Shown here: positions 1,246 to 23,495 of the stretch, piece by piece
How positions within the stretch are numbered: position 1 is the stretch's first letter
How the letters are laid out: the number at the start of each line of letters is the position of its first letter
IMG/VR virus record: IMGVR_UViG_3300036800_000175
Location: 1 to 64,000 of that record
From: a virus
Strand: one strand, 5' to 3'
DNA length: 64,000 bases
Notes under the pieces: generated by a model
Seen by the model: only the letters and a program-made list of their open reading frames with translations
Database searches by the model: none
What the model was told of the DNA's origin: nothing
Made by a program: the position numbers and the translations under genes

Positions 1246-1911
1246 GTGACCACCACTGCCACCGCAACCCAGCCGGCGCAACCCGGGCAGGCTCAGCAGC
1301 CCCCCGACGACAGCCACCTGATCGCTGTCATCGTCTCAGCACTGCTGGCGTACTGGACGGTGGCTGAGGTCACCCGGGCGCTCAGGGCGCCGCTCAAAGC
1401 CGCGGGGATCGGCACCATGGCGATCGCGGCCGCGGCCGGGCTCATGCTGGCGTGGCCGGCGGAGTCGATGGAAGGCACCGGGCCCGCCTCGAGGTGGGTG
1501 GTGCGGCAGAACATGCTCCGCCGCGGCTCGTTTTTCCTCAACGCCGCGAGGCGGACCCAGGTCGCGATCAGCCAGGCGCGTGCGCACGGCCAGCCGGTCA
1601 AAGCCGCAGCCGCGCAGGCGATCGCGAACGAGCGCAGATGGTTCGGGCAGCATGTCGCGGCGTCGGCGGCCCGCGCGCAGGTCGGCTCCGCCGTCGACGG
1701 TATCGCCTCGCAGCACGGTGGCCTGGCCGGCTGGCAGGCAGTCAACGACCGCAAGACGACGGCGGGCTGCCGTCGTGCGTCCGGTAAGAACTTCCGGGCG
1801 GACCGGCCGCCGATCGTGGAAGGCCGGCCGTCGTTCCCGGGCGCGGTGCATGGTGCGACGTGCCGGTGTTACCCGGTGCCGCCGTTCAGGGACGCGCCGG
1901 TGATGGACTAG
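1246..1911 (+). CDS. MuF/SPP1 gp7-like minor head morphogenesis protein
   Basis: WQAVNDRKTTAGC and PGAVHGATCRC (HPxCRC-like); follows portal. Confidence 0.75.
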   Translation: MTTTATATQPAQPGQAQQPPDDSHLIAVIVSALLAYWTVAEVTRALRAPLKAAGIGTMAIAAAAGLMLAWPAESMEGTGPASRWVVRQNMLRRGSFFLNAARRTQVAISQARAHGQPVKAAAAQAIANERRWFGQHVAASAARAQVGSAVDGIASQHGGLAGWQAVNDRKTTAGCRRASGKNFRADRPPIVEGRPSFPGAVHGATCRCYPVPPFRDAPVMD

Positions 1912-2887: not shown

Positions 2888-3070
2888 ATGAACTGGGCGC
2901 TGTACGCCGTCGCCGGCGTGCTCGCGATCTCAACCCTGATCGTCATCGCGCACACAGGTAAGACACCAGCCGACCCGGCGAAACCCGGCGGCGGCCAGGC
3001 CGCCATGATCACCATCGTGAACGCCGCGATGATCGTCGTCGTGGTCATGGCCGCGATCCGGCTCAGCTGA
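2888..3070 (+). CDS. Small two-TM membrane protein
   Basis: Two hydrophobic helices. Confidence 0.6.
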   Translation: MNWALYAVAGVLAISTLIVIAHTGKTPADPAKPGGGQAAMITIVNAAMIVVVVMAAIRLS

Positions 3071-3074
3071 CCAC

Positions 3075-3332
3075 ATGGCCGATAACGAGACCGGCCGGTT
3101 CTGCACCCTGACCGGGACGACCGATAACGAGATCGACCTGACCGGCGCGATGACGCCCGCGCTAGCGGCCGACGACCTGCTCTACGGCGTGCGCCAGGCG
3201 GCCGAGCACGGTGAGGTCACCTGGGTCAGCAAGGACGGCGAGCGGATCGGCGCGATCGTCCCCGCCGGCGTCGCAGAGTTCGCGCAGGCACCGAACGGCT
3301 GGCACAGCACCCATCGCCGCGGCGAGCACTAA
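3075..3332 (+). CDS. Phd/YefM-like antitoxin-domain protein
   Basis: VRQAAEHGEVTWVSKDGERIGAIVP resembles the Phd core (v.r.e.GE.v.it..G.pvAvlvp). Confidence 0.55.
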   Translation: MADNETGRFCTLTGTTDNEIDLTGAMTPALAADDLLYGVRQAAEHGEVTWVSKDGERIGAIVPAGVAEFAQAPNGWHSTHRRGEH

Positions 3333-4849: not shown

Positions 4850-5160
4850 TCGGCCGCCGCGTCCCCACCATCGGCGGGATCGAACAGCCAGGCGACTACT
4901 GCGGCCCCATCACCGGCTACACCGGCGACCTCGAGGCGTGTTTCTTCCTCAAACCCAACGCCCGCGACACCGACGCCACCGCCGGGGCGCGCAGCATCCA
5001 GCATGTCTGTTTCCCCCCGCACACCTACCGGGAATGCGCCGACGGGTCGCTTGAGATACGCCCGTCGATCAGCAACCTGACCGCCGGTGACATGGACGGA
5101 TCCAGCGACGACGGCTGGCACGGCTGGCTGGATGAGGGGCACATCTGGCGGCTCGCGTGA
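4846..5160 (+). CDS. DUF6527-like hypothetical protein
   Basis: DGSLEIRPSI ... WHGWLDEG.W; overlapping start/stop on both sides. Confidence 0.55.
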   Translation: MIGRRVPTIGGIEQPGDYCGPITGYTGDLEACFFLKPNARDTDATAGARSIQHVCFPPHTYRECADGSLEIRPSISNLTAGDMDGSSDDGWHGWLDEGHIWRLA

Positions 5161-7886
5161 GCGCAGTCGCGGGCTGGGAGCATGAGGCGCGCGGGCCGGG
5201 CGGCAAGTGGATAGAGCTGTACCACGGGACGACGTCAGCGAAGGCCGTCAGCATCAAGGCGAGCGGCATGACGGCCAGCAGGTACAGCCACTACAACAGC
5301 ACGCTCACGGTCAGGAAAGACGAAGCGGGCTACTTCGCCGGCGCTCACGGGGCGGTGGTCACCGTGCGGATTCCGGCGGATCAGATGGACGAGTACACCG
5401 AGGGCAACTCACAGGGCCTGGTGTCGCTGCGGAAACCGTTGCCGCCCAGCATGATCCACAAGGTGGACCACATGGATCCGCGCGATGCCAGACTGGCCCG
5501 GCCGGCCTCTCGCCGGATGATTGACCTGGTCGGCCCGCGCGGCTACGTGCATGGCTGGATCAAGGTCGGGGCCGGCGGCGAGCTCCCCCAAGGCCAGCCG
5601 GACGTCCGCGCCGCGAACGCCGCCCTCGCCAAAACCGGGGTACTCAAGAGGGCCACGCGGCAAAACATGAGCGTCGGCGGTGGCCTGGCCGTCGCGGGCG
5701 GCTCGAGCGACACGGAGCGGCCGGTCGCGGACGCCCTGACCGGCGCCACCCAGACCGGCAAGGACCACTACGTCATCCCGACCGCGATGGGCCTGGCCGC
5801 GACCCGGTCCAAGAGCGACACGACGTCAATGTCCGGGTACATCCAGGTCACCCCCGCCGGTGACGTGACGAAGATGGAACGCCCTAGCTTCGGCAAGCCT
5901 GCTGTGCCGGTCGCCCGCCTCTCAGACCACACCGTCGCCAGCGTCCTTGACCGGCAGCTGTCGAAGACGGTGAAAGCGCAGCCGCGCACCACCGCACCCA
6001 AGGCTGCGGTGAAGGATCCGGACGTGGTCCCGCGCAGCGCAGTCGCCCGCCTGGTCAAGGACATGAAGGCCAACCCGGCCCTGCTGACCCCGGAGTACAA
6101 GGCGCGGGCCAAGACGGTCGCGGGGAAGTCCGGCGCATCGGACCTGATTCCGTCGGACTGGGCCGGCGATCAGCCCGCGCTCGAGTTGTCCGCTCAGACC
6201 GCACGGCTGGCCAGCACCCCCGCGCCAGCAGGGAAACCCGGCGGGCCGGGCCTGTACCGCGTCAAAGGCATGGAACTCCCGCCGTACTTCCAGAACGTCC
6301 GGAACGCGCTGATCCGGTCCGGGCATCCGCCCGCGGAGGCGTACCAGATCACTTGGGGTGCGATCCGCCGCTGGGCACGCGGCGGCGGCAAGGCACACCC
6401 CGAAGTCGTCGCGGCCGCGAGGGCTGCGCTCGCCGCGCTGGCCGCTGATTCGGCTCGTGCCCACGCTCACTCCAACCCCGCGCGGGAGGCGATCACGTTG
6501 GCTAAAGTCGCCACCGGCGCGCAGGTGAACATTGCGACGGGCGCGACGGGGCCGCTGTCCCGCCCGCCCTCGAGCGGCGGCAAGGGCGCCGGTGGTGGCG
6601 GGTCGGGGTTCGATTCGCTGCATCCGCGGGTCGGCGCCGGGAACACGGGCGGTGGCCGGTTCGCCAAGAAAGGCTCCGGCACCACCGCAGCGTCCGGGTC
6701 GTCTGCGAAGACAGCCAAGGCCAAGACGGCTGCGAAGCCGAAGGCTGCCGGGAAGACGGCCGCCAAGACTGCGGCAGCACCGGCGGCGGGCAAGGCGACG
6801 ACGCCGAAGATGAACGCCACCCCGGCCAAACCGAAAACCCCGGCGAAGGCGAAGGCTGCACCGAAGCCAGCGCCGAAGCCGACGGGCCGCGCGGCGAAGC
6901 TACAGCAGAAAACCCAACTCCAAACCCAGGCCAGGAACGACCGGGCCAAAGCGAAAGCGATCAACGTCCAGATCGCGCAGCTGACCGCCGCGATCCACAC
7001 CGCCGTCAAAGCCGCCGCCGCATCCACAGCGTCCACCGCAGCCACGAAAACCGCTGCCACCGCCGCGAAAACAGCAGCCGCGACCACCACCGCGGCCGCT
7101 AAAACCGCTGCGACCGCGGCGACGACCACGGCGACGACGACCGCGTCCACGACCGCGAAGACAACATCGTCGGTGCCGGCGATGCGCGCCAAACGCGCCG
7201 GCCTGCGAGTCCAGGCACACACCCTGGTCGTCCGGGCGAACACGCTGGACAAGCAGGCCGCCGCGATCCACCTCACCGCCGCCGGGCCCGCCGCAGCGCT
7301 CGAGCTCGCGGGCGCGGCGCCGTTCCGTGAGGAACTCGCCCGCCGGGTGCCGGCCGGGAAACCGGGTGGTGGCCGGTTCGCTGAGCCGGCTGACCGGCTG
7401 ACCCGGCATGCGACCCCGGATCAGACCGCCGTGGCGGTCAACCGGCTCGCCCCGGATCAGCGTGCGGTGTGCCGGGCGACGGTACTGCCACCACCGGGTT
7501 ATGAGTGGGGCGGCACGGACCGGCTCATCCCCACGTCCGGCGCTGATCTGGCCGGCTCAGCGCGGGCGATCGAGCTGGTCGGCCCAAAAGGCTATATCCA
7601 CGGCTGGATCCGCCCCGGCGGGCCAGCACCGCCGACACCGGCGGCGAAGAAACCCGCGACGGTCGGGCATGTCGTCAAGGCGCACAGCCAGTCCACCGCG
7701 TACACCGACGCGAAGTTCGCTGAGCTGGAAACGCAGATCGGCGCCCTGCACAAGCAGATGGCGGACATGCAAGACAGCAAGGAAACCCACGACGCGAAAC
7801 TGAAAATCGCGTCGCACATCGGGGTGGCCGCTGCTGGCGGGATCCTGTCCTGTCCGTCGGGACTCAGGAAGCCATCGACTTCGTGA
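5157..7886 (+). CDS. 909-aa modular head-associated protein: N-terminal H-type ADP-ribosyltransferase-like domain, GPxGYxHGW motifs, Ala/Lys/Thr-rich linkers
   Basis: ELYHGT..SIKASGM; IDLVGPRGYVHGW and IELVGPKGYIHGW; HPR..GGRF motifs; C-terminus probably frameshifted near 7845. Confidence 0.7.
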   Translation: MSAVAGWEHEARGPGGKWIELYHGTTSAKAVSIKASGMTASRYSHYNSTLTVRKDEAGYFAGAHGAVVTVRIPADQMDEYTEGNSQGLVSLRKPLPPSMIHKVDHMDPRDARLARPASRRMIDLVGPRGYVHGWIKVGAGGELPQGQPDVRAANAALAKTGVLKRATRQNMSVGGGLAVAGGSSDTERPVADALTGATQTGKDHYVIPTAMGLAATRSKSDTTSMSGYIQVTPAGDVTKMERPSFGKPAVPVARLSDHTVASVLDRQLSKTVKAQPRTTAPKAAVKDPDVVPRSAVARLVKDMKANPALLTPEYKARAKTVAGKSGASDLIPSDWAGDQPALELSAQTARLASTPAPAGKPGGPGLYRVKGMELPPYFQNVRNALIRSGHPPAEAYQITWGAIRRWARGGGKAHPEVVAAARAALAALAADSARAHAHSNPAREAITLAKVATGAQVNIATGATGPLSRPPSSGGKGAGGGGSGFDSLHPRVGAGNTGGGRFAKKGSGTTAASGSSAKTAKAKTAAKPKAAGKTAAKTAAAPAAGKATTPKMNATPAKPKTPAKAKAAPKPAPKPTGRAAKLQQKTQLQTQARNDRAKAKAINVQIAQLTAAIHTAVKAAAASTASTAATKTAATAAKTAAATTTAAAKTAATAATTTATTTASTTAKTTSSVPAMRAKRAGLRVQAHTLVVRANTLDKQAAAIHLTAAGPAAALELAGAAPFREELARRVPAGKPGGGRFAEPADRLTRHATPDQTAVAVNRLAPDQRAVCRATVLPPPGYEWGGTDRLIPTSGADLAGSARAIELVGPKGYIHGWIRPGGPAPPTPAAKKPATVGHVVKAHSQSTAYTDAKFAELETQIGALHKQMADMQDSKETHDAKLKIASHIGVAAAGGILSCPSGLRKPSTS

Positions 7887-7896
7887 AGAGGCTGTG

Positions 7897-8094
7897 ATGC
7901 AACCATCTGAGCAGCCGTCTGAGATTTCACCGGACGTGATTAGTGCGGCGGTCGACGCGATGACGCAGGCGTTCATCCAGAACGGCGCTGACCCTGATGA
8001 CGCGAAGGTCGCCGCGGACTATTACGTCCGGGAAGCGATCCGGCAGAACAAGGTCCCCGGTTTCGAGACCGGCACCACCGGCCCGCCCAGCTAG
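7897..8094 (+). CDS. Small acidic protein (possible immunity/partner)
   Basis: TGATG coupling to the alternative C-terminal frame of the upstream gene. Confidence 0.55.
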   Translation: MQPSEQPSEISPDVISAAVDAMTQAFIQNGADPDDAKVAADYYVREAIRQNKVPGFETGTTGPPS

Positions 8095-8111
8095 GGAAGG
8101 CGGGTCGGCCG

Positions 8112-9353
8112 ATGATTGACCTGGTCGGCCCGAAAGGGTATGTCCACAATTGGGTGTTCGTAGGCGTTCCCGGCGCAAAGGCTGCCGCGCCCAAGGCGTC
8201 CGGCCCCGCTGCGGCGAAGGCGTCAGGGTCACTGCTGGACGCGTACAAGGGCTGGCGGGACAGCCTGACACCGGCTGAGTCCAAAGCCATGTCGTTCTAC
8301 CAGTCACCCGGGTTCGCCCTGATGAACGGCCAGTTGCGCGGCGTCGACGGTGGCCATTTGAAGGCCAGTGAGCATGCCACTGATGCGGACCTGGCCCGGG
8401 CGCGGCAGGCAAGCAAAGGCCTCGCCGGGGCCATAGCGAAAGCACCGCCGCTGCCCCGCGACACCACCGTGTACCGGGGGTTCGACGCCGGCCAGTTCGG
8501 TGACCTGACCCCCGGCAAAGTGATCACCGACAAGGGGTTCACGTCGGTGTCGGTGAACAACGACGCCGGCGCGGTCGGCCGCGCCACATCCAAGGCACAA
8601 GCGGTGATCACTCTCCCGGCGGGCACCAGGGCGGCCGCCGGATCGGTGCGTGAGCTCGTGCTGCCACCGGGATCCAGTTTCCGTGTCGTCTCCGCCCAGA
8701 AACGCGGAAAGGTGACGCATGTTCGGCTGGAACTAGTCCCGCGCGGCGGCAAGAAGCTGGCGAACCGCCGCGGCCGCGCGCTCGAGTTGACCGGCCCGAA
8801 AGGCTGGTCACACGGCTGGATCCGCGACGGCGACACGGTCACCTACACCGGCAACCTCGGCGTCGGCCGCGCCGACATGGCCCAACTGTCCGGCACCGTC
8901 GCCGGAAAGTACGTGCCGTCCGCAGCGATGATCCCGAAGTTCATCGCCCACCTGCGTGGCAAAGGCATCACGGTCACCTCGAGGCGCGCGCCGGCCGAGT
9001 CGCTGCGGGCGACGCAGACGACCGGGTCGATGCCGATGATCCGGGGCATCGCGGACGACCTGAAATCCGGCAGGCTGGCCGACACGAAACCGATCGTGAT
9101 CAGCTCTGACAACCGGGTGCTAGACGGGCATCACACCTGGGCTGGGCGGGTCCTGGCCGACTCCGAAGGCGGCCGTCCGGATCTGCCGCCGGGGATGCGG
9201 GTTGTGCAGGTCGGCATGCCGATGGCGGACCTGATCGGTGAGGCACGGCAGTTCGGCCGGGCCAGCGGTATCGCGCAACGCAAACCGGGTGAGATCGGCA
9301 ACCCGGCGTTCATGAAACCGAAGGTAGGACTAGCGGCGCGGGGGGTCGCGTGA
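8112..9353 (+). CDS. VIP2-like (R-S-E) ADP-ribosyltransferase domain fused to a ParB-like domain
   Basis: MNGQLRG, TVYRG, GFTSVS, RELVLPPG; second module PIVISSDNRVLDGHHTW; each module preceded by GPKGxxHxW. Confidence 0.8.
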   Translation: MIDLVGPKGYVHNWVFVGVPGAKAAAPKASGPAAAKASGSLLDAYKGWRDSLTPAESKAMSFYQSPGFALMNGQLRGVDGGHLKASEHATDADLARARQASKGLAGAIAKAPPLPRDTTVYRGFDAGQFGDLTPGKVITDKGFTSVSVNNDAGAVGRATSKAQAVITLPAGTRAAAGSVRELVLPPGSSFRVVSAQKRGKVTHVRLELVPRGGKKLANRRGRALELTGPKGWSHGWIRDGDTVTYTGNLGVGRADMAQLSGTVAGKYVPSAAMIPKFIAHLRGKGITVTSRRAPAESLRATQTTGSMPMIRGIADDLKSGRLADTKPIVISSDNRVLDGHHTWAGRVLADSEGGRPDLPPGMRVVQVGMPMADLIGEARQFGRASGIAQRKPGEIGNPAFMKPKVGLAARGVA

Positions 9354-10159
9354 AGACACCAGGACCGCAGCGTGCGGCCGGCCGCCGCCAACTCGCGGCC
9401 CGGAAGCAGGCCCTGCCGGGCGGGTCGTTCCCGATCCCGGACGTCGCCTATCTCAAGAAAGCGATCCGGTCGGTTGGCCGCGCACCGGCGTCGAAACGCC
9501 CGGCGTTGAAGGCGCTGATCCGCAAACGGGCCCGCGAACTCAAGGCCGCGAACACGCCTGGGGTCAAGGGGACGTGGCCGTTCCAGGCCGCCAACACGCA
9601 CGGGAAGGTGGTTGACCTCGCGATGGCGACGATGACCCGCAAGATGCCGGTGGTCCGCGGTGCCGCGGATGTGCAGCTGACCCGGAGTGGGCCGGGCAAG
9701 GTCACCGTGATGCACAAGTCCACCGGCTTCAAGGTCGGCACCCTCGGCCAGGCGGGGAAGGGCTGGCAGGGTGTCCACGCGTCGGGTGCGAAGACACCGC
9801 CGTCGGGGTCGATGGGCGGTGCGGTCGCCGGCCTGGTCGCGACGCACAACCAGCTCGCCCGGGGGAAGAAACTGCCACCCGCGCAGCAGGACGGTACCGC
9901 CACGTACGCGCATCCGGCGGGTGACGGGATCGACCTGGCTGGTGCGCTGCCCCATTCCACGCCGGCGAGCTCGGCGTCCGACGGGCCGCGCGTCACCACC
10001 GCCGGCGGCAGCGGGCCGGCTGGGCTGACCGGCGAAGCGGCCGCCGTCTACGCGAAGCTGATCAAGAAGGGGCTCAAGCCTGGCCAGGCGGCCGCGCTCG
10101 CCAGACGCGCGGCGGCGATGCACGCGAAGGCGGCAGACCCAAAAGCCTCAGCCGCGTAG
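9350..10159 (+). CDS. Head-associated protein with DUF6582-like N-terminus and a segment resembling the capsid N-terminus
   Basis: ALPGGSFPIPD..LKKAIRSVGRA..LIRKRAREL; TPASSASDGPRVT. Confidence 0.65.
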   Translation: MKTPGPQRAAGRRQLAARKQALPGGSFPIPDVAYLKKAIRSVGRAPASKRPALKALIRKRARELKAANTPGVKGTWPFQAANTHGKVVDLAMATMTRKMPVVRGAADVQLTRSGPGKVTVMHKSTGFKVGTLGQAGKGWQGVHASGAKTPPSGSMGGAVAGLVATHNQLARGKKLPPAQQDGTATYAHPAGDGIDLAGALPHSTPASSASDGPRVTTAGGSGPAGLTGEAAAVYAKLIKKGLKPGQAAALARRAAAMHAKAADPKASAA

Positions 10160-10164
10160 GCGGC
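10138..10164 (+). other. Candidate -1 ribosomal frameshift signal (C CCA AAA plus GCCGC-GTAG-GCGGC hairpin)
   Basis: X XXY YYZ heptamer in the correct phase; hairpin 6 nt downstream; -1 frame continues into the zeta domain with no start codon. Confidence 0.75.
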
Positions 10165-10959
10165 CGGACGGTAGACCTGGTCGGCCCGAAAGGGTATGAG
10201 CATGGCTGGCGGTTCGTCGGGATCCCCGCCGACTCGCTGACCGCGCACACCGACAAGTCCGGGAACCTGACCCCCGCCCGGGCGGCGCTGCATCAGAAAA
10301 TCGTGGCGCGGGCGCTCTCTGGCGCACCGAAGTCGGCTCATCCGGTCGCGACGTTCATGGGTGGCGGTCCCGCGTCCGGGAAATCCGCGATGCTCAAAGC
10401 CTCCGGCAGCCGCGGCCGGCCCGCGGGGGTCACGATCGACGCCGACGCGATCAAAGCGCAGCTACCCGAATACCAGGCGATGACCAGGGCGGGGAACGCC
10501 GGCGCGGCCGCCTATGCGCATGAAGAGTCGTCGGTGATCGCGAAGAAAATCCAGGCCGCCGCCATCAAGGGCGGCCACGACTTCACGTTGGACGGCACCG
10601 GGGATTCCAGCTACGCCAAACTGGCCAGCAAGGTCACCGCGGCGAAAGCGGCCGGGTACAAGGTCCACGGCCAGTACGTGACCGTCGACACCCCCGCCGC
10701 GGTCGAGCGGGCGACCGCCCGGGCGGCGAAAACAGGCCGCATGGTCCCCCCGTCGGTGATCAAGGAAATCCACGCTGGGGTGTCCGGCGCGTTCCGCCAG
10801 GCCGTCGCGAACAACCTGTTCGACACGTCCGAGCTGTGGGACAACAACGGGTCTAGCAGTAATGCGATTAAACTGATAGGGAGCCAGCGTGCAGGCGGCC
10901 AGTTCACGGTCGCTGACCAGGGCGCTTATGCGCGGTTCCTCGCGAAGGAAAACGAATGA
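10144..10959 (+). CDS. Zeta-toxin-like P-loop kinase, probably expressed as a -1 frameshift fusion
   Basis: GGGPASGKS, IDADAIKAQLPEY, HEESS, LDGTG, LWDNN; VDLVGPKGYEHGW lies upstream of the first GTG (10303). Confidence 0.85.
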   Translation, partial: SLSRVGGRTVDLVGPKGYEHGWRFVGIPADSLTAHTDKSGNLTPARAALHQKIVARALSGAPKSAHPVATFMGGGPASGKSAMLKASGSRGRPAGVTIDADAIKAQLPEYQAMTRAGNAGAAAYAHEESSVIAKKIQAAAIKGGHDFTLDGTGDSSYAKLASKVTAAKAAGYKVHGQYVTVDTPAAVERATARAAKTGRMVPPSVIKEIHAGVSGAFRQAVANNLFDTSELWDNNGSSSNAIKLIGSQRAGGQFTVADQGAYARFLAKENE

Positions 10960-11153
10960 TGGCAACGCAGGGCCGGGGTGAGGTCGCGGTCGCGATGGCC
11001 CAGGCCGCCGCGGCCGGTAAAGACTTCGCGGACGCCGGTGTCCCGGACACGGCCGCGAACCGGGCGCTGTACGCCAAGATCGTCTCTGAGGTGGATGCGA
11101 TCGACAAGGCCGGGCAGGTCGCGGAAGTGCCGTTCGACCACGCCCTCATGTGA
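10956..11153 (+). CDS. Small acidic protein, candidate antitoxin/immunity for the zeta-like kinase
   Basis: ATGA overlap with the kinase stop. Confidence 0.55.
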   Translation: MMATQGRGEVAVAMAQAAAAGKDFADAGVPDTAANRALYAKIVSEVDAIDKAGQVAEVPFDHALM

Positions 11154-11208
11154 CAAAAGCCGCTCCCCGCGAGGGGGAGCGGCTCGCGCAGGGCCGCCGG
11201 GCTTGGGT

Positions 11209-11496
11209 TCAGGACAGGAAGCGCAGGCGGATGACGCAACCCTTCGCGGGATGCGGCAGGTCGTACTCAAACGAGTTGGCGTCGATAATGCGGGCATTGC
11301 GGGCCTTCGGCCATGGCTGGCTTAGTTCGGTGCCGTCGTCGTAGCCTTCGGCGTCAGTGGTGAAATACCAGTACGTGGGCGTAGACCTAGTTACGGTCCG
11401 CACGGTGCCGACCAGCACGGGCCGCTTAGTTTGCGCAACCACCTCCAAGCGGGTGCCCTCCGTGGCGCGGCGCTTTATGTCTGCCAGAGTCCTCAT
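11209..11496 (-). CDS. Hypothetical protein
   Basis: RBS GGAAAGGA; globular sequence. Confidence 0.65.
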   Translation of the reverse strand: MRTLADIKRRATEGTRLEVVAQTKRPVLVGTVRTVTRSTPTYWYFTTDAEGYDDGTELSQPWPKARNARIIDANSFEYDLPHPAKGCVIRLRFLS

Positions 11497-11522
11497 GTCG
11501 TAGATCCTTTCCTCAGGCGGGT

Positions 11523-12269
11523 TCAGGTGATCTTGCGGATCGGCACGACCATCGCACGGAACCGGCTGCCGATCTTCACCAGCACGGCCGCTCCGGGCAG
11601 GCCGGCACTGAACTCCACCGACACATGCCGGTCCGACTTCCTCTTCTTGCCGGAGAACACCTCATCGGATTCGACCTTCCCGAACAGGGTCAGCCACTTC
11701 TGGCCGAGGATGAACTCAGCAGGCGGCTCACCCGCCGGGATCTCCGCCATGCTGGGCTGCTTCGCACGCGGCTTGCGGTGGCCGCCGAACAGTGTCTCGC
11801 CCGCCCGCGGGAACTCCCCGGAGGTGAGGACCTCGGCGCGGAGCGTCTGGTCAGGCTCGCATGCCTGCCCGGTGAGGGTGAACGCGGCGTGCCCCTCACC
11901 TTCGACCCACTCGATCACGATCCGGGGCGGCCCGGCGAGCGGTGAGAACTCTTGCAGTGACGCCAGCATTTTCGTGATCTTCACCAGTCCCGTGACGACG
12001 ACCAGGATGTCCAGGTCGGTTTCGGGGACGGGCGGCGGATCGGCGGTGCCCGGCACGGCGATCTGGGCCGGGTCGATCAGGTCCAGGTCCTCGCGGCTGA
12101 TCACGTAACGGTTGGTCGCCTCAAGCAGCAGCCTGCCGGGCTCAGTGCTGGTGAAATGCACGGCGCACAGCGACGGCAGGGTGTCGTCGGTGCAGGCGAA
12201 CAGTGAGGCGTTGAGCACTGCGCGGTAGAACGCGGTGGCGTCCACTGTCGCGGTGTGAGTGTCACTCAT
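11523..12269 (-). CDS. DNA polymerase III beta-clamp-like protein
   Basis: FACTDDTLPSLCAVH, LEATNRY, GEFP, C-terminal FRAMVVPIR match clamp domains 2-3. Confidence 0.7.
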   Translation of the reverse strand: MSDTHTATVDATAFYRAVLNASLFACTDDTLPSLCAVHFTSTEPGRLLLEATNRYVISREDLDLIDPAQIAVPGTADPPPVPETDLDILVVVTGLVKITKMLASLQEFSPLAGPPRIVIEWVEGEGHAAFTLTGQACEPDQTLRAEVLTSGEFPRAGETLFGGHRKPRAKQPSMAEIPAGEPPAEFILGQKWLTLFGKVESDEVFSGKKRKSDRHVSVEFSAGLPGAAVLVKIGSRFRAMVVPIRKIT

Positions 12270-12287
12270 GATCTTCCTTCCTGTAGG

Positions 12288-12530
12288 TCAGGCGGCCAGC
12301 GCCAGCGCGGGCCGGGTCGTGGGGCGGATGACGGTCACTTCGCGCATTGGCACGCCGGCGGCGGCCAGAGCCTCAGGTGTCCGGGCGAACGCCATGACCT
12401 TGCCGTCCAGCCGGGCGCAGATCTGCGGGCCGTCTCCGACGGGATCCAGTGGCGTGCCGGCCGGGTTGAACCGGCGTGGCGGCCGGGTGAATTCCAGATC
12501 CATCACCTCAGCCGTCCACCCGGAAGTCAT
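12288..12530 (-). CDS. Hypothetical protein
   Basis: Coupled within leftward operon. Confidence 0.55.
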   Translation of the reverse strand: MTSGWTAEVMDLEFTRPPRRFNPAGTPLDPVGDGPQICARLDGKVMAFARTPEALAAAGVPMREVTVIRPTTRPALALAA

Positions 12531-12814
12531 GACTGCGCCTCAGCGGCCAGCCGGCCGTTCAGCAGCCCGGCGGGACGCGGGCCGGTCGCGACACGGCTCG
12601 TGCCGTACGCGTACCAGAACGCCCGGTCGTTCGCGGCCTTGGCCAGCCTGCGGCCATCCTCAACACGGGCCAGCGCCTCACCGTGGGAGTCGTAGGGGCC
12701 CAGCAGCCGGCCGGTCCGGCCGCCGTCCTTGACGGTGACGTAGAACCCGCCGGGGTCGCCGTTGTCATGCGAGCCGGCTGGGCAGCCGCACGGCTCAGCC
12801 GTGGTGGTGGTCAT
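12527..12814 (-). CDS. Hypothetical protein
   Basis: RBS GAAGGAG; FYVTVKDGGRTGRLLGPY. Confidence 0.65.
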   Translation of the reverse strand: MTTTTAEPCGCPAGSHDNGDPGGFYVTVKDGGRTGRLLGPYDSHGEALARVEDGRRLAKAANDRAFWYAYGTSRVATGPRPAGLLNGRLAAEAQS

Positions 12815-12834
12815 CGTTGCTCCTTCGGTGGCCA

Positions 12835-13203
12835 TCAGGCGGCCAGGCACATTGCGCGGCGGTTGGAAGCGATTTGCGTGGTGGCCGTGGCCATGCCCGA
12901 CGCGGCCGCCTCAGTCAGTGACCCGGCCTGGTCCTGCCACCGTGAACTGCCGTACACCTCGCCTTTTTCGGGGCTGCCGGTCTGCCAGTTCCGCCGCGAC
13001 GCGCGGCCCACGGCCAGGACCCCGCCGGCCAGGACCTCGCCGGGCTCCGGCTCATCGGGGTGCACCCACCATGCGTTGGACAGGCCGTTGCCGGTGGGGG
13101 CGCCGGACCAGACGGTGCCTATCCGGTCGTACGGCTCGCGATCGGCGCTGTAGTGGCGCCAGACCATCACGTCGCCGGCCTGGACAGGCTTGGCGGTCGT
13201 CAT
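12835..13203 (-). CDS. Hypothetical protein
   Basis: First gene after promoter 13247-13275; RBS GGAAGGA. Confidence 0.65.
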   Translation of the reverse strand: MTTAKPVQAGDVMVWRHYSADREPYDRIGTVWSGAPTGNGLSNAWWVHPDEPEPGEVLAGGVLAVGRASRRNWQTGSPEKGEVYGSSRWQDQAGSLTEAAASGMATATTQIASNRRAMCLAA

Positions 13204-13246
13204 CGGGGTTCCTTCCCGCGGGGGGATCCGTTCCCCTCACAACTAC

Positions 13247-13275
13247 ATTTTACCCGGTCAAGTAGACCACGTCAA
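13247..13275 (-). promoter_or_regulatory. Repeated promoter/operator copy 1 (TTGACG-17-TAAAAT)
   Basis: Sigma70-type boxes; spacer contains the GTCWA-N-TTGAC palindrome. Confidence 0.85.
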
Positions 13276-13306
13276 ATAAAACGAGCCGCCCCGGACGGGA
13301 CGGCTC
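13276..13306 (-). terminator. Intrinsic terminator
   Basis: GAGCCG..CGGCTC hairpin followed by a T-tract on the minus strand. Confidence 0.6.
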
Positions 13307-13443
13307 AGAGGTTTCCGCAGGTCAACGGCGGCGCCTCGCCCTGCTGCGGGCCGCCCGCCAGACCGCGACGACAGCCACCGGGCAGGTGACAGCAGCAGCC
13401 GCCTCGAGCGGGTGGGAGCCGGTCAGCCAGCCGGCGACGGCGG

Positions 13444-13704
13444 TCACGCCTGCACCTCCGCCTGCGGCTTCGGCGCCGGGTAGGTGCTGTGAGCCAGGAT
13501 GACGTGATCCCGGTACTCCGGACCCGGTCCCTGCTTGACCCACTCCTGCTCATAGGTGCGGCCGGCGTAGATGCTGCCGTCCTGCGGCCAGGTGGCTTGC
13601 TCATAGATGGTGACGCCGTAGTCGGTGCCAGCCGGGGTGGATCCGTTCGGTGCGGGCGGCCGCAGGGTTTCCCACTCCACTCGCCGCACTTCCTGCCAGT
13701 CCAC
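13444..13704 (-). CDS. Hypothetical protein
   Basis: Downstream of promoter copy 2; RBS GGAG. Confidence 0.6.
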   Translation of the reverse strand: MDWQEVRRVEWETLRPPAPNGSTPAGTDYGVTIYEQATWPQDGSIYAGRTYEQEWVKQGPGPEYRDHVILAHSTYPAPKPQAEVQA

Positions 13705-13748
13705 AGGGGTTCTCCGTCCCGTGAGGGGAACCTCCCCTCACACTCCCT

Positions 13749-13777
13749 ATTTTACCCGGTCAAGTAGACACGGTCAA
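13749..13777 (-). promoter_or_regulatory. Repeated promoter/operator copy 2 (TTGACC-17-TAAAAT)
   Basis: Same 29-bp architecture. Confidence 0.85.
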
Positions 13778-13821
13778 ATAGCAGAACGCCCCCGCGTACC
13801 CCCGCGCCACGAGCACGTCGG

Positions 13822-14037
13822 TCACAGCCGCACCTCACGCTTGAGGACCTCCCGGGCGTACTTGACCACCTCAGGCAGGAGCCACACCTGCATCCGGGCC
13901 AGCTTCTTAGACTTCGGCGCCTCCGGGTGGATGCGCCGGTCCATCAGCTGCCCGGCGCGCTGCTTGGACACGCCGAGCATCTGCCCGATCTCACCCACGC
14001 CCACCACGTCGTCAATGGTCACCTTGCGTGCTGTCAC
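13822..14037 (-). CDS. AlpA/excisionase-like HTH DNA-binding protein
   Basis: VVGVGEIGQMLGVSKQRAGQL..P.P...VW..EV. Confidence 0.8.
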   Translation of the reverse strand: MTARKVTIDDVVGVGEIGQMLGVSKQRAGQLMDRRIHPEAPKSKKLARMQVWLLPEVVKYAREVLKREVRL

Positions 14038-14113
14038 CGGCTCGCTCCAATTCGGCTCACGCCCCCGGCCGTTTGACCGGGGGCAGTTGACGGGGTCAGG
14101 TGGCCCCAGTAAA

Positions 14114-14509
14114 TCAGCCGGCCGCCGTGGCGTCCGTCTCGATGTCCACCTCAGCGGCGAACCGGCCTTCCCAGTAGTCCCGCTGGCCGTCGGAGTTGTC
14201 GTAGTTGTACGCCCACAGGATCGCCTTGAGCGTGTCCTCGATCAGCTGCGCACCCGGGGTGAGCACGGACCGGCCGTAGTCATCGGTGGTGAAATGCTCC
14301 GCGTCGGCCAGGCCGGTCACCGTCACGGTGACCGACTTGCCCCCCGAATACCGTGCGATCCGCACCCCGTAGCCCAGCCCAGGGGGCAGGCCGGGCAGGC
14401 CCAGGGCGGCGGCCAGCCGGGCGGCCTTGATGTCAGCCCGGACCAGCTTCGCCACCTCCGCGATATCCAGGGACTGTGTGTCGTGGTACTTGCTGCCGTA
14501 GGTGCTCAT
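14114..14509 (-). CDS. Large-polyvalent-protein-associated domain (LPD29/LPD25-like) protein
   Basis: AKLVRADIK..VRIARYSGGKSVTV..YNYDNSD..DYW..F. Confidence 0.55.
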   Translation of the reverse strand: MSTYGSKYHDTQSLDIAEVAKLVRADIKAARLAAALGLPGLPPGLGYGVRIARYSGGKSVTVTVTGLADAEHFTTDDYGRSVLTPGAQLIEDTLKAILWAYNYDNSDGQRDYWEGRFAAEVDIETDATAAG

Positions 14510-14859
14510 TCCTTCCTCTCTTCCGGGCCAAGACGGCGCGTTCCGGGCCGCGGGCCCCAGACGCGCTCGATCTCCCGGTTGCAGTCCCAGCGCGGGTTAC
14601 TCGGCGGGTCGCCCTCATGGCAGGGGCATTCGCAGTGGGTGACCTCACAGCCGGGGTTGACCCAGCCGTGGCAATCGGCGTGAGTGCCCGTCCCGGTGCC
14701 GAGGCAGTTGATCGTCGTCTTGCCCTTGCGCAGCCCACGCCGCGACGCGGGCGCGGGCTGCGGGTCGGGCTCGCACATCCGGCAGACGCCGGATGTGCTG
14801 TCGCAGCCGCTGGACCGGCACCAGGTGCCGGACGGCGTGTTGTGCTGGGGGATCTTCAC
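14506..14859 (-). CDS. Cys-rich metal-binding hypothetical protein
   Basis: Multiple Cys/His clusters including CECPCH. Confidence 0.55.
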   Translation of the reverse strand: MKIPQHNTPSGTWCRSSGCDSTSGVCRMCEPDPQPAPASRRGLRKGKTTINCLGTGTGTHADCHGWVNPGCEVTHCECPCHEGDPPSNPRWDCNREIERVWGPRPGTRRLGPEERKE

Positions 14860-16496
14860 GCGGTCTCCTCACCGGCCGCCGCCATGGCGGTCGTCTCATC
14901 GGTGCTGGCCGGGGCCGGGATCACGGCCAGCACCGTGCTGACACTGGTCCCCGACACGGCGAACGACTCATCCGGCAGCCGCTCAATCCACCCGCCGCAA
15001 TCCGCGACCAGCTTGCGGAACCCCTCCGCCGTCTTGTTCTCCCGGGACTGCGCCCCGGCGGACATGACCGCCACCAGCCGGCCACCCGGCTTGACGAACC
15101 CCAGCGCGTGGGTGACATGCGCGATGTCGGCCTGACCGGCGAACGGCGGGTTCATCAGGACCCGGTCGTAATACTCCGCGCCAGCCGGATTGTCCCGGGG
15201 ACCGTATTCCAGGAAATCGGTGCAGACGACCATCCGCGCGAACGGCTCGCCGCGCAGCCGGCCGGCCATCTGGCCGTTCAGCTCCACGCAGTCCACCACC
15301 GCGCCTGCCGCAGCGGCCACCGACGCGATCGCGCCCAGCCCGGCTGAGGGTTCCAGCACCGTCATCCCGGGAGTCAGACCCGCTTCGCTGATCATCTGGT
15401 CAACGACCGCGGCCGGGGTGGGGAAGTAGCCGGTACGGGCGTCCACCCGGATCGGCTCGGGCCGCTCGGCCTGGGCCAGTTCGGGCACGGCGGGTGCCTC
15501 GCGGCGGGTCACCGTCCGCTTGGCCCGCACCACGACCGTCTTATCCTCATGCGGGCAGGTCACCGACTGGATCTGCTCATACGGCAGGACCCGGGGCCAG
15601 GACCGGCGGTCCAGCGAAACACTCTTCGGGTTGACCCGGACCACCGTCGCATCGCTGCCCGGCCGCGTCGACCAGGCCACCGTGTCGCCCTTGTGGACGG
15701 TCTCACGGTTCAGCCGGACGTACCCATTGGCCTCATGTTCGGCCAGCGCGGCCCGGTCCGCGGCCAGGTTGTGTTCCAGCCACGTCCTGCGGGCTTCCAG
15801 GGATTCCCTGTACGTCCCGCCCGCTGGCTGCCGGTCGTACCCGTAGGCGCCGCGCCAGTCGTTCGCCGGCCGCGTCCCGTTCAGGTAGTGGCCGATCTGC
15901 CGCAGTTCCGCCTCCGTCTTGTCGATCCGGCGGATGATCACCGCCGGGCGGTCGCGGTACGCGTCGGCCAGGCCGACCACCGCCGCAGCGGCAGATGCCC
16001 GTTCGGCTTCCCGCTGCGCCTCGCCTGCGGCGCGGTCGTTCTGCTCCATGCGCTCATGATCGCGGCGTGCACGCCGTTCGGAGTGATGGCCGACCAGGAT
16101 CGGCTGACCGCCGGCGAACCGCTCACTGATCGCGTCCGCGGCGGCGTGGCGGGACTGGGCTTCGGCTCCGGCCCGCTGCGCCTTCGCGGTCAGCCGGTCG
16201 TAACGGTCGTCCAGCCGGCCGGCCCGGTCCGCCCTGACCTCGGTCACGGCGCGGGGGGCGTCGTCAATCTCAACCGTCACCTCGTGGCCGGCCGCGCGGA
16301 GCACCTGTTCGGCTGCCTGGATCTGGTGGCGCTTGGCTGGGCGGTCGCGGGACTGGGCGATGCCGATCATCTTGATCGACGGGAAGTACCGGAACCGGGG
16401 CCCGGTCCGGGGGCCGATCAGCTCATACACGCCGTCGCCTTTGCTGGTCCCGTAGACCAGGGTGCCGTCTTCGTGTGTGTGCCGGATGGTGATCAT
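14856..16496 (-). CDS. DUF3560 domain fused to an amino-(N6A/N4C) DNA methyltransferase
   Basis: GQPILVGHHSERRARRD; YFPTP, LEPSAGLG, MNPPF; start reassigned to MITIRH with RBS AAGGA. Confidence 0.85.
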   Translation of the reverse strand: MITIRHTHEDGTLVYGTSKGDGVYELIGPRTGPRFRYFPSIKMIGIAQSRDRPAKRHQIQAAEQVLRAAGHEVTVEIDDAPRAVTEVRADRAGRLDDRYDRLTAKAQRAGAEAQSRHAAADAISERFAGGQPILVGHHSERRARRDHERMEQNDRAAGEAQREAERASAAAAVVGLADAYRDRPAVIIRRIDKTEAELRQIGHYLNGTRPANDWRGAYGYDRQPAGGTYRESLEARRTWLEHNLAADRAALAEHEANGYVRLNRETVHKGDTVAWSTRPGSDATVVRVNPKSVSLDRRSWPRVLPYEQIQSVTCPHEDKTVVVRAKRTVTRREAPAVPELAQAERPEPIRVDARTGYFPTPAAVVDQMISEAGLTPGMTVLEPSAGLGAIASVAAAAGAVVDCVELNGQMAGRLRGEPFARMVVCTDFLEYGPRDNPAGAEYYDRVLMNPPFAGQADIAHVTHALGFVKPGGRLVAVMSAGAQSRENKTAEGFRKLVADCGGWIERLPDESFAVSGTSVSTVLAVIPAPASTDETTAMAAAGEETA

Positions 16497-16654
16497 CGGG
16501 TGTTCCTTACTGCGGGGCGGCCGCGCCGCACCTTGCGGCGGCGGGCTGGGATGACCTTGACGGCCGGCGGGGCCGGGCGCCTGCGCGCCATGATCACGGC
16601 GGCGGCTGCGGCTCCTGCCAGCATCGGTTCCTCCCTCTCTCACCCTGCAATACC

Positions 16655-16699
16655 ATTGTACCCGGTCAACTTGACTAGGTCAAATTGACCGGGTACGTT
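16655..16699. promoter_or_regulatory. Promoter/operator copy 3, bidirectional (minus TTGACC-17-TACAAT; plus TTGACT-17-TACGTT)
   Basis: Extended palindrome GTACCCGGTCAA...TTGACCGGGTAC. Confidence 0.8.
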
Positions 16700-16707
16700 C
16701 CCGCAGG

Positions 16708-16971
16708 TCAGGTAGCGAAACGCGCCGTGATCCTGTACCGGTGGGCCCGGGTGACATGCGGTGCCATCTCCTGCACGTCCACCACCTCGGGCGTCACGCC
16801 GGTCGCGGCACGCAGCAGCGAGGCAATCCACCGCCGGTCGCCGTAGTAGCAGGTCGTGCCGGGCATCGCGATCACCACCGCGCCACGGTGCGCGGGGGAC
16901 GCGGTGGTCGTGATGTTCACGCCCGGGTGCAGGCGGCGCAGTCCGCGGGTCACCTCAGCAGGGGTCAGCAT
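16708..16971 (-). CDS. Hypothetical protein
   Basis: Leftward operon member. Confidence 0.55.
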   Translation of the reverse strand: MLTPAEVTRGLRRLHPGVNITTTASPAHRGAVVIAMPGTTCYYGDRRWIASLLRAATGVTPEVVDVQEMAPHVTRAHRYRITARFAT

Positions 16972-17146
16972 TGGGGGGGCCTTTCTGGTCGTAGTTCACG
17001 GGCGCGTCGGTTTCGATCACGTATGACACGCCGTCGCCGTCGGTGGCGTTCGCCGCCTCTTCATCGGCCTGGTGCCGGTCGCCGTACACGAAACCGGGCA
17101 TATCCGCGAGTCTGTGACTCCCGTAGATGACCTGATAGTTGGGCAT
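16955..17146 (-). CDS. Small acidic hypothetical protein (MPNYQVIYG...)
   Basis: RBS GAAGGGGG; downstream of promoter copy 4. Confidence 0.6.
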   Translation of the reverse strand: MPNYQVIYGSHRLADMPGFVYGDRHQADEEAANATDGDGVSYVIETDAPVNYDQKGPPNADPC

Positions 17147-17188
17147 CGGATGTCCCCCTTCCGTAGGGCCTCGCGGGCTTACAACCTG

Positions 17189-17217
17189 ATTGTACGCGGT
17201 CAAGTTGACCCGGTCAA
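17189..17217 (-). promoter_or_regulatory. Promoter/operator copy 4 (TTGACC-17-TACAAT)
   Basis: Contains perfect GGTCAA-G-TTGACC palindrome. Confidence 0.85.
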
Positions 17218-17443
17218 ACCTCACGGAGCACGGCGAGGTAATCCTCACCGTCGACGGTGAGGCACAGGCAGTCGCTGTATTCCGGGTCGGTGGCCAGGTG
17301 GCCACGCCGCACGGCACGGCACGCTGCCGCGCGGGCCGCCCGGCCTGCTGGTCGATCCTGGTGGCCGTGCACGGGCGTACCTGCTCAGCCAGACTCAGCG
17401 CGACCCGGTCTCTCATCTCAGCCGCCGTCAGACTGCGGGCCAT
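17214..17443 (-). pseudogene. Apparently frameshifted small gene (MARSLTAAEM... / ...LCLTVDGEDYLAVLREV)
   Basis: N- and C-terminal protein-like halves are in different frames; RBS GGAGGT. Confidence 0.4.
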
Positions 17444-17484
17444 CGCTAGCGGTCACCTCCGCGATCTGCTCCACCCTGCACTTC

Positions 17485-17513
17485 ATTGTACCTGGTCAAC
17501 TTGACGCGGTCAA
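17485..17513 (-). promoter_or_regulatory. Promoter/operator copy 5 (TTGACC-17-TACAAT)
   Basis: Same architecture. Confidence 0.85.
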
Positions 17514-17533
17514 AGGTGCGGGGGTGTTACGCA

Positions 17534-18181
17534 GTGCCGGACGCGTGGCGCCACACCCTCGGCCTGGACACCGCCGGCCTCCGCGCCTACGGGCGGTTGC
17601 GCGCCCGTGGCGTCGGTCACGGCCACGCTGTAAAAACGGCCCGCCGCACCGTCACCCTCGGCCATACGTGGGCCGCCATTGAGCTGGTCGGCCCGCACGG
17701 CTATGAGCACAACTGGATCTTCGTCGGCGTCCCAGCGGACAAGGTCGGTCATGTCACAACCCTGAAAGGTGATCAGCAGTTCTACCATGTGACCAGGAGA
17801 GATCCTGAGCAGGCGATCAGGAACGGCCTGCCCCCATCGCAGGCTGGTGAGAGCGGCCCCGGCGTCTATCTAGCGGCTGACCGGCAGTACGCCTCAAGCA
17901 TGACGCGCTGGGACAACTCAATGAAGACGCTGGGCGTGACAGTTCACGCCGGCAACGGACTGCACCTACTCGACAGGACTAAGCCCGGCGGGGAAGCCGA
18001 ATACCGCCGCATCCAGATGTATGAGAACGGCAACAAAAACGTCGGCATGGACAAGGCGCTAGCCGCCAACGGCTACCACGGCGTGCGGTACCTCTCACCG
18101 GGCAACAAATACGCAGAGACGGTCATCCACGACCCGGGCAAGCTGACAGTGCATGGCGTTGTCAGTCCCGGGGCGGCGTAG
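17534..18181 (+). CDS. GPxGYxHxW-tagged H-Y-E type ADP-ribosyltransferase-fold protein
   Basis: IELVGPHGYEHNWIFVGVP, then FYHVT, GPGVYLA, GYHGVRY, ETVIHDP; visibly lower GC. Confidence 0.75.
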   Translation: MPDAWRHTLGLDTAGLRAYGRLRARGVGHGHAVKTARRTVTLGHTWAAIELVGPHGYEHNWIFVGVPADKVGHVTTLKGDQQFYHVTRRDPEQAIRNGLPPSQAGESGPGVYLAADRQYASSMTRWDNSMKTLGVTVHAGNGLHLLDRTKPGGEAEYRRIQMYENGNKNVGMDKALAANGYHGVRYLSPGNKYAETVIHDPGKLTVHGVVSPGAA

Positions 18182-23042: not shown

Positions 23043-23495
23043 ATGCCGGGAGCACTTCCGCACCTCAAGCACGGCCCGGACAGCTACCAGGTATCCGCGC
23101 AGGTCCTCGGCGGGCAGCTGGTCGTCGCTGACGGCTCATCCGCCACCACCGTGTCCGTCGCCGGCGCAGGCGCGGCCAACGTCCTCGGCGTCGCCGGTGC
23201 GGACGCCGCCCCGGTCGTCTCCCAGGCCGGCAACGTCACCGGCTACGGGCAGCCCGTCGTGGACATCTCCGTCCTGCCCGACTACGTCCCCGTCTACCAC
23301 GGCGCGGACATGCACGTCACTTACGCCGCGACCGCCACATTCGGGGCGCTGCTCAAGTCCGCGGCCACCGGCCAGGTCACGCCCTGGGTGTCCGGCACCG
23401 ACGCGGCCGGCCTGATCGTCGGCCGCTGCACCCAGCCCGGCGGTGTCGCCGTCTCTGCCGGCGGCGTCGTCGGCCGAGCCCGGATATTCGGCTGA
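23043..23495 (+). CDS. Head decoration/cement protein
   Basis: Position, size, G/A/V-rich beta composition; RBS AAGGA. Confidence 0.7.
   Translation: MPGALPHLKHGPDSYQVSAQVLGGQLVVADGSSATTVSVAGAGAANVLGVAGADAAPVVSQAGNVTGYGQPVVDISVLPDYVPVYHGADMHVTYAATATFGALLKSAATGQVTPWVSGTDAAGLIVGRCTQPGGVAVSAGGVVGRARIFG

Follow-up and report, generated by a model that had tools for sequence, protein, structure and literature searches.

Proteins that are packaged in the phage head and injected are a phage's first move against host defences. Outside T4, P1, P22, N4, and the giant phages, it is to our knowledge mostly unknown which proteins the heads carry and how these are selected. The subject here is a short peptide that recurs in a 64,000-nucleotide stretch of viral DNA (the window), the first 64 kb of the IMG/VR record IMGVR_UViG_3300036800_000175. 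The record has 109,876 bp, is rated complete by CheckV, and comes from a soil actinophage whose relatives number in the hundreds and are uncultured; the GC content of the window is about 69%. The peptide, termed the tag, has the core GPKGYxHGW (x, any residue) and occurs six times in the window. An earlier note on this DNA had taken it for a portable packaging address on effectors loaded into the capsid. The comparisons reported here lean, modestly, toward a different account, in which the tag is a bipartite signal at module junctions: a cleavage site fitted to the head protease of the phage itself would be joined to a constant cargo tag.

Packaged and processed proteins in other phages

The prohead protease of phage T4 has the consensus L/I-x-E. 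T4 also provides a precedent for a shared peptide on packaged proteins, the capsid targeting sequence (CTS), which is the only conserved part of diverse injected defence proteins (PMC3012670). Like the CTS of the internal proteins IPI-III and Alt, which are fast-evolving anti-host proteins carried in the head and injected (PMC3012670), the tag is a short peptide common to unrelated proteins, N-terminal when the protein stands alone, and apparently linked to a prohead protease. It departs from the CTS in several respects: its consensus is not L/I-x-E; it occurs also internally, at junctions, and after portal and MuF domains; its conserved part would stay on the cargo; and the phages that bear it are siphovirus-like actinophages with Mu-like or HK97-like heads.

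Two other systems share single features with the tag. MuF polymorphic toxins of temperate phages, in which a head protein carries a variable C-terminal toxin, were reportedly described by Jamet et al. in 2017. Homologues of an ADP-ribosyltransferase (ART) of the window are likewise fused to MuF in some relatives; in the window, unlike in those toxins, MuF carries no toxin, and the payloads are separate genes or tagged multi-module proteins. Encapsulin cargo-loading peptides are short, portable, and usually C-terminal, and they load enzymes into the HK97-fold shell of bacterial compartments. The tag, too, is a short portable peptide on diverse enzymes, but it differs from them in sequence and position.

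Polyvalent proteins are multi-domain effectors encoded near portal and MuF genes and predicted to be packaged and injected (Iyer et al. 2017, PMC5512222; and PMC9503650). The first of these studies (PMC5512222) describes them as rich in ARTs, 2H, Nudix, kinase, and ParB-like domains, and proposes zincin-like metallopeptidase domains for their autoprocessing; term searches within that article returned no junction tag of the present kind. The window conforms to this picture in that its 413-aa and 909-aa cargo proteins have at least two modules per chain and are encoded among portal, MuF, and head genes; some relatives even join ART-PolyVal, portal, and MuF in one chain. The zincin-like domain is common in polyvalent proteins without being required; in the cargo proteins of the window, Pfam found no peptidase family at E <= 0.01.

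Two studies of the giant phages SPN3US and phiKZ (PMC7411985, PMC10052503) describe many head-internal proteins with a short consensus at which the prohead protease cuts them before their ejection. These systems employ another protease family and another site. We know of no constant tag described after the cut in the SPN3US and phiKZ ejection proteins.

A proposed bipartite signal

The proposed mechanism runs as follows. Tagged proteins would be carried inside the phage head and probably ejected into the host with the DNA. The upstream part of the tag (hydrophobic, any, Leu or Lys, Val/Ala/Thr-Gly) would be recognised by the head-maturation protease that the phage itself encodes, and this protease would cut after residue -2 (counting back from the G-P of the core), a Leu in this lineage and a Lys in the other. 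The constant 13-15 residues, (V)GPKGYxHGW[IV]xVG, would then remain on the following module as its new N-terminus and serve as the cargo tag, either by binding a conserved head component in trans or by acting at ejection. Multi-module proteins (X-tag-Y), portal and MuF fusions (portal-tag-X, MuF-tag-X), and stand-alone proteins (M-(1-10 aa)-tag-X) would all yield the same product: a free module that starts with the constant peptide. Observed directly are the motif and its extent, its distribution, where it sits in proteins and in genomes, how it is shared among payloads, and how residue -2 follows head type; capsid loading, the cut, its position, and the role of the constant half are inferred.

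Extent and distribution of the tag

A six-frame search of the window with the regular expression [IVLM][DE]L[VTIA]GP[KRH]G[YWF].H[GN]W finds exactly six tags, all on the plus strand, at 5520, 7569, 8115, 8781, 10171, and 17678. A degenerate DNA pattern for the core returns the same six sites and none in 100 dinucleotide shuffles, in agreement with the copies listed by the earlier note. The other 46 kb of the record hold no further tag, and the reversed-pattern control gave 0.

The conserved span exceeds the 12 or so residues first proposed. Over 102 distinct copies from other phages, the element comprises about 19 residues, h-x-[L/K]-V-G-P-K-G-Y-x-H-G-W-[IV]-x-V-G (h, hydrophobic), with conserved columns on both sides of the search pattern: position -4 is V, I, or L in 98 copies and -1 is V in 88; downstream, +9 is I or V, +11 is V in 75, and +12 is G in 86. 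Residue -2 takes two principal forms, L in 50 copies and K in 44. Synonymous positions of the tag vary freely across genomes of 51-73% GC while the peptide stays constant; conservation therefore acts on the protein.

Scanning IMG/VR with the core pattern revealed 77 loci with about 100 copies, on contigs of 51-73% GC; many loci contain two to four copies, all in frame within long open reading frames (ORFs). The same DNA pattern matched only seven times in 596 Gb of bacterial and archaeal genomes, which is the chance rate, so the tag is essentially viral. Five of the seven matches lack the flanking residues; the two that have them lie on a short contig of a Streptosporangiaceae metagenome-assembled genome (MAG) and in a Mycobacterium MAG, which points to hosts in Streptosporangiaceae or Mycobacterium. 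A profile of the tag retrieved 132 proteins from a word-indexed collection. Among 1.84 billion representatives, 555 clusters scored E <= 1e-3, of which 114 reached E <= 1e-10, so the tag is present in at least 555 protein clusters of public metagenomes. Tag-bearing proteins reach 2951 residues and contain up to four tags.

Known families and structures do not account for the element. Against the PDB, the profile produced only chance half-matches (E >= 0.4); no Pfam family extends over the tag, whether in the window proteins or in the 110 segments that follow a tag elsewhere; and the literal motif occurs in no phage paper. Among cultured phages, megablast with 20 kb found no match, and the ART module has weak matches to ART or MuF-ART proteins of Microbacterium and Gordonia phages, which begin after the tag.

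Linkage to head genes

The genomic position of the tag was assessed in 45 tag-bearing records, each 15 kb or longer. Within a record every tag lies on the same strand, and all 77 tags whose record has a portal (PF04860) or MuF (PF04233) match share the strand of the nearest such gene. Sixty-six of the 77 fall 0-10 kb downstream of portal or MuF, compared with 17 on average and 29 at most under random placement. Seventeen records have both a MuF gene and a gene for a protein like gpI of phage Mu, the presumed head protease/scaffold protein; in these, all 29 tags lie between the two genes on the right strand, where 3.3 would be expected. The head module of the window is itself Mu-like, and its six tags all fall in this same interval. 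The earlier note had staked its proposal on linkage to head modules in other genomes, and that linkage holds.

A candidate processing site

The tag-bearing records divide by head type. Homologues of the gpI-like protein (41-62% identity) are present in 22 of the 45 records, and 18 of the rest have at least one of two other proteins, an HK97-type portal (PF04860) or an S78 protease. Residue -2 follows this division: the 33 tags from records with a gpI-like protein all have L or F there, and the 39 tags from records with an HK97-type portal or S78 protease all have K or R. The core GPKGYxHGW is identical in both groups. HK97 gp4 is cut at K103|S104, that is, with Lys before the cut. A K-SLG look-alike is present at the expected place in one capsid protein of the K lineage (record G033), the capsid site being viewable in 3 of 20 records, a number too small to carry weight. 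A paper on the Mu-like phage JBD30 gives no protease site.

The gpI-like proteins carry a related sequence. In 22 of 22 aligned homologues, h-h-D-L-[ST] ends the N-terminal domain, just before a variable acidic scaffold-like part; in the window protein this D-L site reads VTDLTG..YDLAS (22008-22046). Such a boundary is the expected place for a protease/scaffold protein to cut itself. One relative (locus L081) encodes a gpI-like protein (5036-6745, minus strand) with a full tag and a 150-residue insert at exactly this boundary of the N-terminal domain.

The upstream half of the tag also occurs by itself. Half sites of the form h-[DE]-L-[AVT]-G without GPKGY number 28 in tag-bearing proteins, versus 1-3 for the reversed and most permuted patterns. 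Some are variants of the tag; in others the sequence goes on with GTAAGAA.D.RTP.G or with G[AS]LP..S.AS..DGP, and the latter resembles the N-terminus of the window capsid protein. Because these half sites have other continuations, the upstream half of the tag appears to be a unit of its own.

Position and portability

Segments before the first tag (66 cases) include portal (12), MuF (4), S78 protease (1), and Nudix (1) domains, the tag following the domain directly. Families after the tag include ADPrib_exo_Tox, Arr-ms, ART, ART-PolyVal, zeta, PI3/4-kinase, 2H/LigT, AAA_33, MuF, and S78, so that at least 10 unrelated Pfam families are preceded by the same peptide; about 80 of 110 post-tag segments have no known family. 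Among 233 tag-bearing proteins, the tag never lies less than 83 residues from the C-terminus, and a minimum of 80 residues (median 196) separates one tag from the next. It is found within the first 30 residues of 50 proteins and within the first 60 of 95. About a fifth to a third of the proteins have an N-terminal tag; elsewhere it is internal, at module junctions. If a stop codon lies close upstream, the start codon best supported by a Shine-Dalgarno sequence is located 1-10 residues before the tag, as at 8112. A tag that is never C-terminal and in many proteins comes first must belong to the module behind it.

One payload can also be followed across different N-termini. Orthologues of the window ART module (50-75% identical) begin in four ways: with the tag; with HPR..G.[FW] (about 20 orthologues, one from Streptosporangium roseum); with PHPYPGQxWKHGW[IV]P (9 orthologues), which has the core x-H-G-W-[IV] in common with the tag; or as MuF fusions, of which five proteins have no tag at the junction. 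A further motif, HE.RG..G.W, opens the 909-aa protein of the window (5172-5210) and is of the same kind as WQHELRGPSGEW, which stands where the tag would be in P0292, the closest homologue of the protein bearing tag 6. As judged from their sequences, HPR..G.[FW], HE.RG..G.W, PHPYPGQxWKHGW[IV]P, and the tag look like a family of interchangeable cargo tags. One payload with several tags, and one tag with many payloads, together support the portability that the earlier note had ascribed to the element.

Many K-lineage proteins have a conserved segment of about 45 residues behind the tag, V.HP.HG.GTV....V.FDSG...FEH (for example L009:2757-2915 and L059:5811-5936). This segment looks like a small beta domain.

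Tagged proteins in the window

The first cargo gene (5157-7886, plus strand) encodes a multi-module protein of 909 aa, as read from its translation. Its opening motif is followed by a small KptA/ART-like domain (NCBIfam RNA 2'-phosphotransferase, E 0.0075, residues 20-79) and then by tag 1 (IDLVGPRGYVHGWIKVG..; 5520-5576, plus strand), at residue 122 and preceded by a Met at 5517. Next is a long Ala/Thr/Lys-rich region that includes a helical module. Then come HPR..GGRF (6618-6662); a half site, LELAG (7299); GKPGGGRF (7356-7379); tag 2 (IELVGPKGYIHGWIRPG..; 7569-7625, plus strand), at residue 805; and a coiled-coil tail. The long low-complexity region is bracketed by tags 1 and 2. The helical module, of about 100 aa (approximately 6249-6470, residues 365-438 or so; ..LPPYF..RRWA.GGG..HPEV..), has counterparts at 45-60% identity in over 45 tag-bearing proteins of other phages and is a second candidate for a head-binding element. 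The earlier note was correct in placing two tags inside this protein; not every tag precedes an enzyme, though, as tag 1 follows the KptA/ART-like domain.

Upstream of the cargo genes, a small plus-strand ORF (3033-3332) contains the half site NEIDLTGAM and no tag.

Between the 909-aa gene and the ART gene lies an ORF for an acidic protein of 65 aa (7897-8094, plus strand; translation), for which NCBIfam gave no family match. From its place directly upstream of the ART gene, it is a candidate ART immunity protein or chaperone.

The ART gene (8112-9353, plus strand) encodes a 413-aa protein with four parts: tag 3 (IDLVGPKGYVHNWVFVGVP; 8115-8171, plus strand), at residue 2 and hence right behind the start codon; a VIP2/C3-like ADP-ribosyltransferase (residues ~42-210); tag 4 (LELTGPKGWSHGWIRDG..; 8781-8837, plus strand), at residue 224; and a second module. 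PHROGs matches are phrog_3895 for the protein and phrog_2859 for the second module. The ART assignment is backed by Pfam (PF03496, E 2e-9) and by Foldseek, which returned VIP2, C3, Certhrax, and CDTa at E 1e-12 to 1e-9. Among the enzyme calls made earlier, this one and the zeta kinase described below are sound. The second module, called ParB-like, was unconfirmed by Pfam, NCBIfam, and PDB sequence searches; the H-Y-E ART proposed after tag 6 is a lead only.

The next gene (9350-10159, plus strand; local blastp, translations) encodes a 269-aa protein whose family, according to local blastp, makes up the C-terminal portion in many proteins with an N-terminal tag; in relatives, genes of this family usually lie just upstream of the gpI-like gene. 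Where the relatives have a full tag, the window protein has a degenerate remnant, FQAAN..VVDLAMAT (9581-9631). Further on (9929-9997) is the half site IDLAG; behind IDLA the sequence reads GALPH..TPASSASDGPRVT, much as the small head protein (MPGALPH) and the capsid protein (TPAYSSLDGPRIT) begin. In other phages the homologues retain VDLAG[AS]LP.TSNAS..DGP.

Tag 5 (VDLVGPKGYEHGWRFVGIP; 10171-10227, plus strand) directly precedes a zeta-toxin-type kinase module (10228-10959, plus strand; PF06414, E 1.8e-28; phrog_16619 'minor head protein', E 2e-46). The frame that contains both has no ATG, GTG, or TTG before 10303. It would be entered by a -1 slip at a candidate frameshift heptamer, C.CCA.AAA (10138-10144, plus strand), read from the sequence in the zero frame of the preceding ORF (9350-10159), with 13 nt left to its stop. 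Downstream of the heptamer is a weak 5-bp hairpin, GCCGC-GUAG-GCGGC, no better than in shuffles (z -1.2). In relatives, the zeta module is encoded in ordinary tag-x-tag-zeta ORFs.

Tag 6 (IELVGPHGYEHNWIFVGVP; 17678-17734, plus strand) belongs to a stand-alone protein (17534-18181, plus strand; gene call P0291, 215 aa) that may start at 17486, 17534, or 17597; the tag lies 27-64 residues into ORF 17486/17534-18181. Sequence searches of Pfam, NCBIfam, and the PDB assigned no family to the module after it. ESM Atlas gives a lead to a cluster with ART-PolyVal in 20% of its members, so the payload is possibly an ART of the polyvalent-protein type.

Head genes and an inserted block

The window begins within a Mu-type portal gene, the 3' part of which (1-834, plus strand; PF06074 Portal_Mu, E 1.6e-15; phrog_113 portal) encodes a C-terminus without a tag. 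A small stand-alone MuF-like head protein of 221 aa follows (1246-1911, plus strand); its match to PF04233 (E 4.4e-5) scores 24.6 bits, under the cut-off of 29.6. Neither Pfam nor the translation reveals a toxin domain in this ORF, which stops right behind the MuF domain, as the earlier note had said. MuF genes of 223-290 aa occupy the same place in relatives.

The presumed head protease/scaffold protein, of 422 aa (21507-22775, plus strand), was identified through ESM Atlas, with a score of 0.95 to 'Mu-like prophage I protein' clusters. Pfam gave no match for it: PF10123 and PF04586 were both negative, and neither of the two finds a protease elsewhere in the genome. Downstream lie genes for the small head protein (23043-23495, plus strand; phrog_673 'head scaffolding'), which starts MPGALPH, and for the major capsid protein (23534-24445, plus strand; PF25209; phrog_1650, E 4.7e-72, full length).

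MuF and gpI-like genes are 19.6 kb apart in the window, versus 5.9-13.9 kb in relatives. The cargo region, among the late head genes, is interrupted by a minus-strand gene block (11523-17452, noted to 17513), delimited by analysis of third-position GC content by frame (GC3), Pfam, and PHROGs. Its genes encode a RusA-like protein, a 595-aa protein combining DUF3560 with a DNA methyltransferase, and small ORFs. Five near-identical sigma-70-like promoters (TTGACC-17 nt-TACAAT or TAAAAT) lie in the block, where 1.3 would be expected. The block is outside the tag system, so the interval 5157-18181, once viewed as a single system, is broken from 11.5 to 17.5 kb by unrelated genes.

Structure predictions

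AlphaFold2 (AF2) models the tag as two short strands. Its predicted local distance difference test (pLDDT) is about 50-57 beside the ART domain, which itself exceeds 90; at a natural MuF-tag junction, the tag scores 30-42 and MuF 80-95. In this one natural junction, docking of the tag on MuF in cis received no support, tag pLDDT being below 50. The low confidence of the tag means that no packing on neighbouring domains is predicted. This fits a linear motif that would be read in trans.

Alternative explanations

That the tag serves as a packaging address is plausible from its sequence and placement. In the purest form of this idea, it would be an uncut docking motif of 19 residues that binds scaffold, MuF, portal, or the inner capsid wall, much like an encapsulin cargo-loading peptide or a T4 CTS that is not removed. 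Such an address would label stand-alone proteins at the N-terminus, be portable among payloads, be exchangeable with a MuF fusion, and be linked to head genes, all of which the tag is; its constant aromatic face, Y-x-H-x-W, even looks like a binding surface. It would leave unexplained why the tag follows portal and MuF, which are already in the head; why giant proteins have two to four copies at module boundaries; and why residue -2 matches the protease type and the protease/scaffold protein has its D-L site. AF2, moreover, offers no docking on MuF in cis. A pure address is thus unlikely. The converse, a pure processing site or linker, accommodates these last observations readily: the match at residue -2, the D-L site in gpI-like proteins, and the location at module boundaries. 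Loading would then be left to portal or MuF fusion, to the recurrent helical module, or to the HPR motifs, and such recurrent modules are indeed present. It founders on the fifth to a third of tags that are at the extreme N-terminus, where only 1-10 residues could be removed, and on the 13 best-conserved residues, which come after the cut and are identical across lineages with different proteases; we regard it as rather unlikely. A bipartite signal brings the two functions together. It would explain why a tag is kept after proteins already in the head, why the four residues before G-P are always kept in stand-alone proteins, why no tag is C-terminal, and why residue -2 tracks the protease. Because residue -2 follows head-protease type and the gpI-like protein has its own D-L site, a processing role is at least as likely as a pure address. 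A bolder version, in which the constant half is a general cargo-loading peptide of tailed phages with Mu-like and HK97-like heads alike, exposed by the protease, docked on a conserved head component, and sufficient to load any protein for delivery into the host, is possible but doubtful.

After injection, the constant peptide might bind a conserved host protein or nucleic acid and so bring each effector to where it acts, the linkage to head genes reflecting only where injected effectors are encoded. Its constancy across lineages with different head proteins, and its presence on enzymes that must act in the host, would be expected of such a motif. Its presence before MuF, S78 protease, and non-enzymatic low-complexity segments, and inside a gpI-like scaffold protein, would not; nor does anything point to a host partner, and this account is quite improbable. 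Still more so is a tag that merely supplies the first strands of a small folded domain and has no signalling role: the beta-like segment often found behind it in the K lineage invites this idea, but elsewhere mostly unrelated or low-complexity sequence follows, AF2 confidence is low, and neither Pfam nor the PDB has a match over the tag. The explanation with the least in its favour, to the point of being nearly negligible, is a recombination handle in the DNA, a short homology for swapping payload cassettes. The earlier note had raised it on account of 21 identical nucleotides at 5517 and 8112; the identity is real, and payloads clearly have been shuffled among phages. Codon sharing among the six window tags is nevertheless near the expectation from codon usage (124 versus about 96), and the pair at 5517 and 8112 shares 7 codons versus 7.2 expected. 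No identity runs past the tag, and synonymous sites are free across genomes. Recombination at the tag may occur as a by-product.

Several considerations weigh against the bipartite signal. The two head-type groups are two lineages, so the association with residue -2 may represent one historical event; the match could be plain lineage divergence. The gpI-like protein is presumed to be a protease from one ESM Atlas lead. Thirteen near-invariant residues after the proposed cut far exceed the needs of a protease site, and the function given to the constant half is a guess. Processing is not universal, as the five MuF-ART fusions have no junction tag. A meaningless linker would show the same low AF2 confidence. 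In the window, tag 5 would need the candidate -1 frameshift for its expression, and the gene with tag 6 diverges from the early-type minus-strand block and may be expressed apart from the head genes. Finally, tblastn with a 30-aa tag found it in no cultured phage among the 50,697 INPHARED phage records.

Outlook

To the picture of polyvalent proteins, this proposal adds a means of separating modules without a peptidase domain of their own. If it is true, the tag would allow injected effectors of uncultured actinophages, most of whose tagged modules have no known family, to be recognised by a rule read from sequence, and the choice of cargo would be linked to the specificity of the head protease. 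The tag would also be a handle for loading chosen proteins into actinophage capsids.

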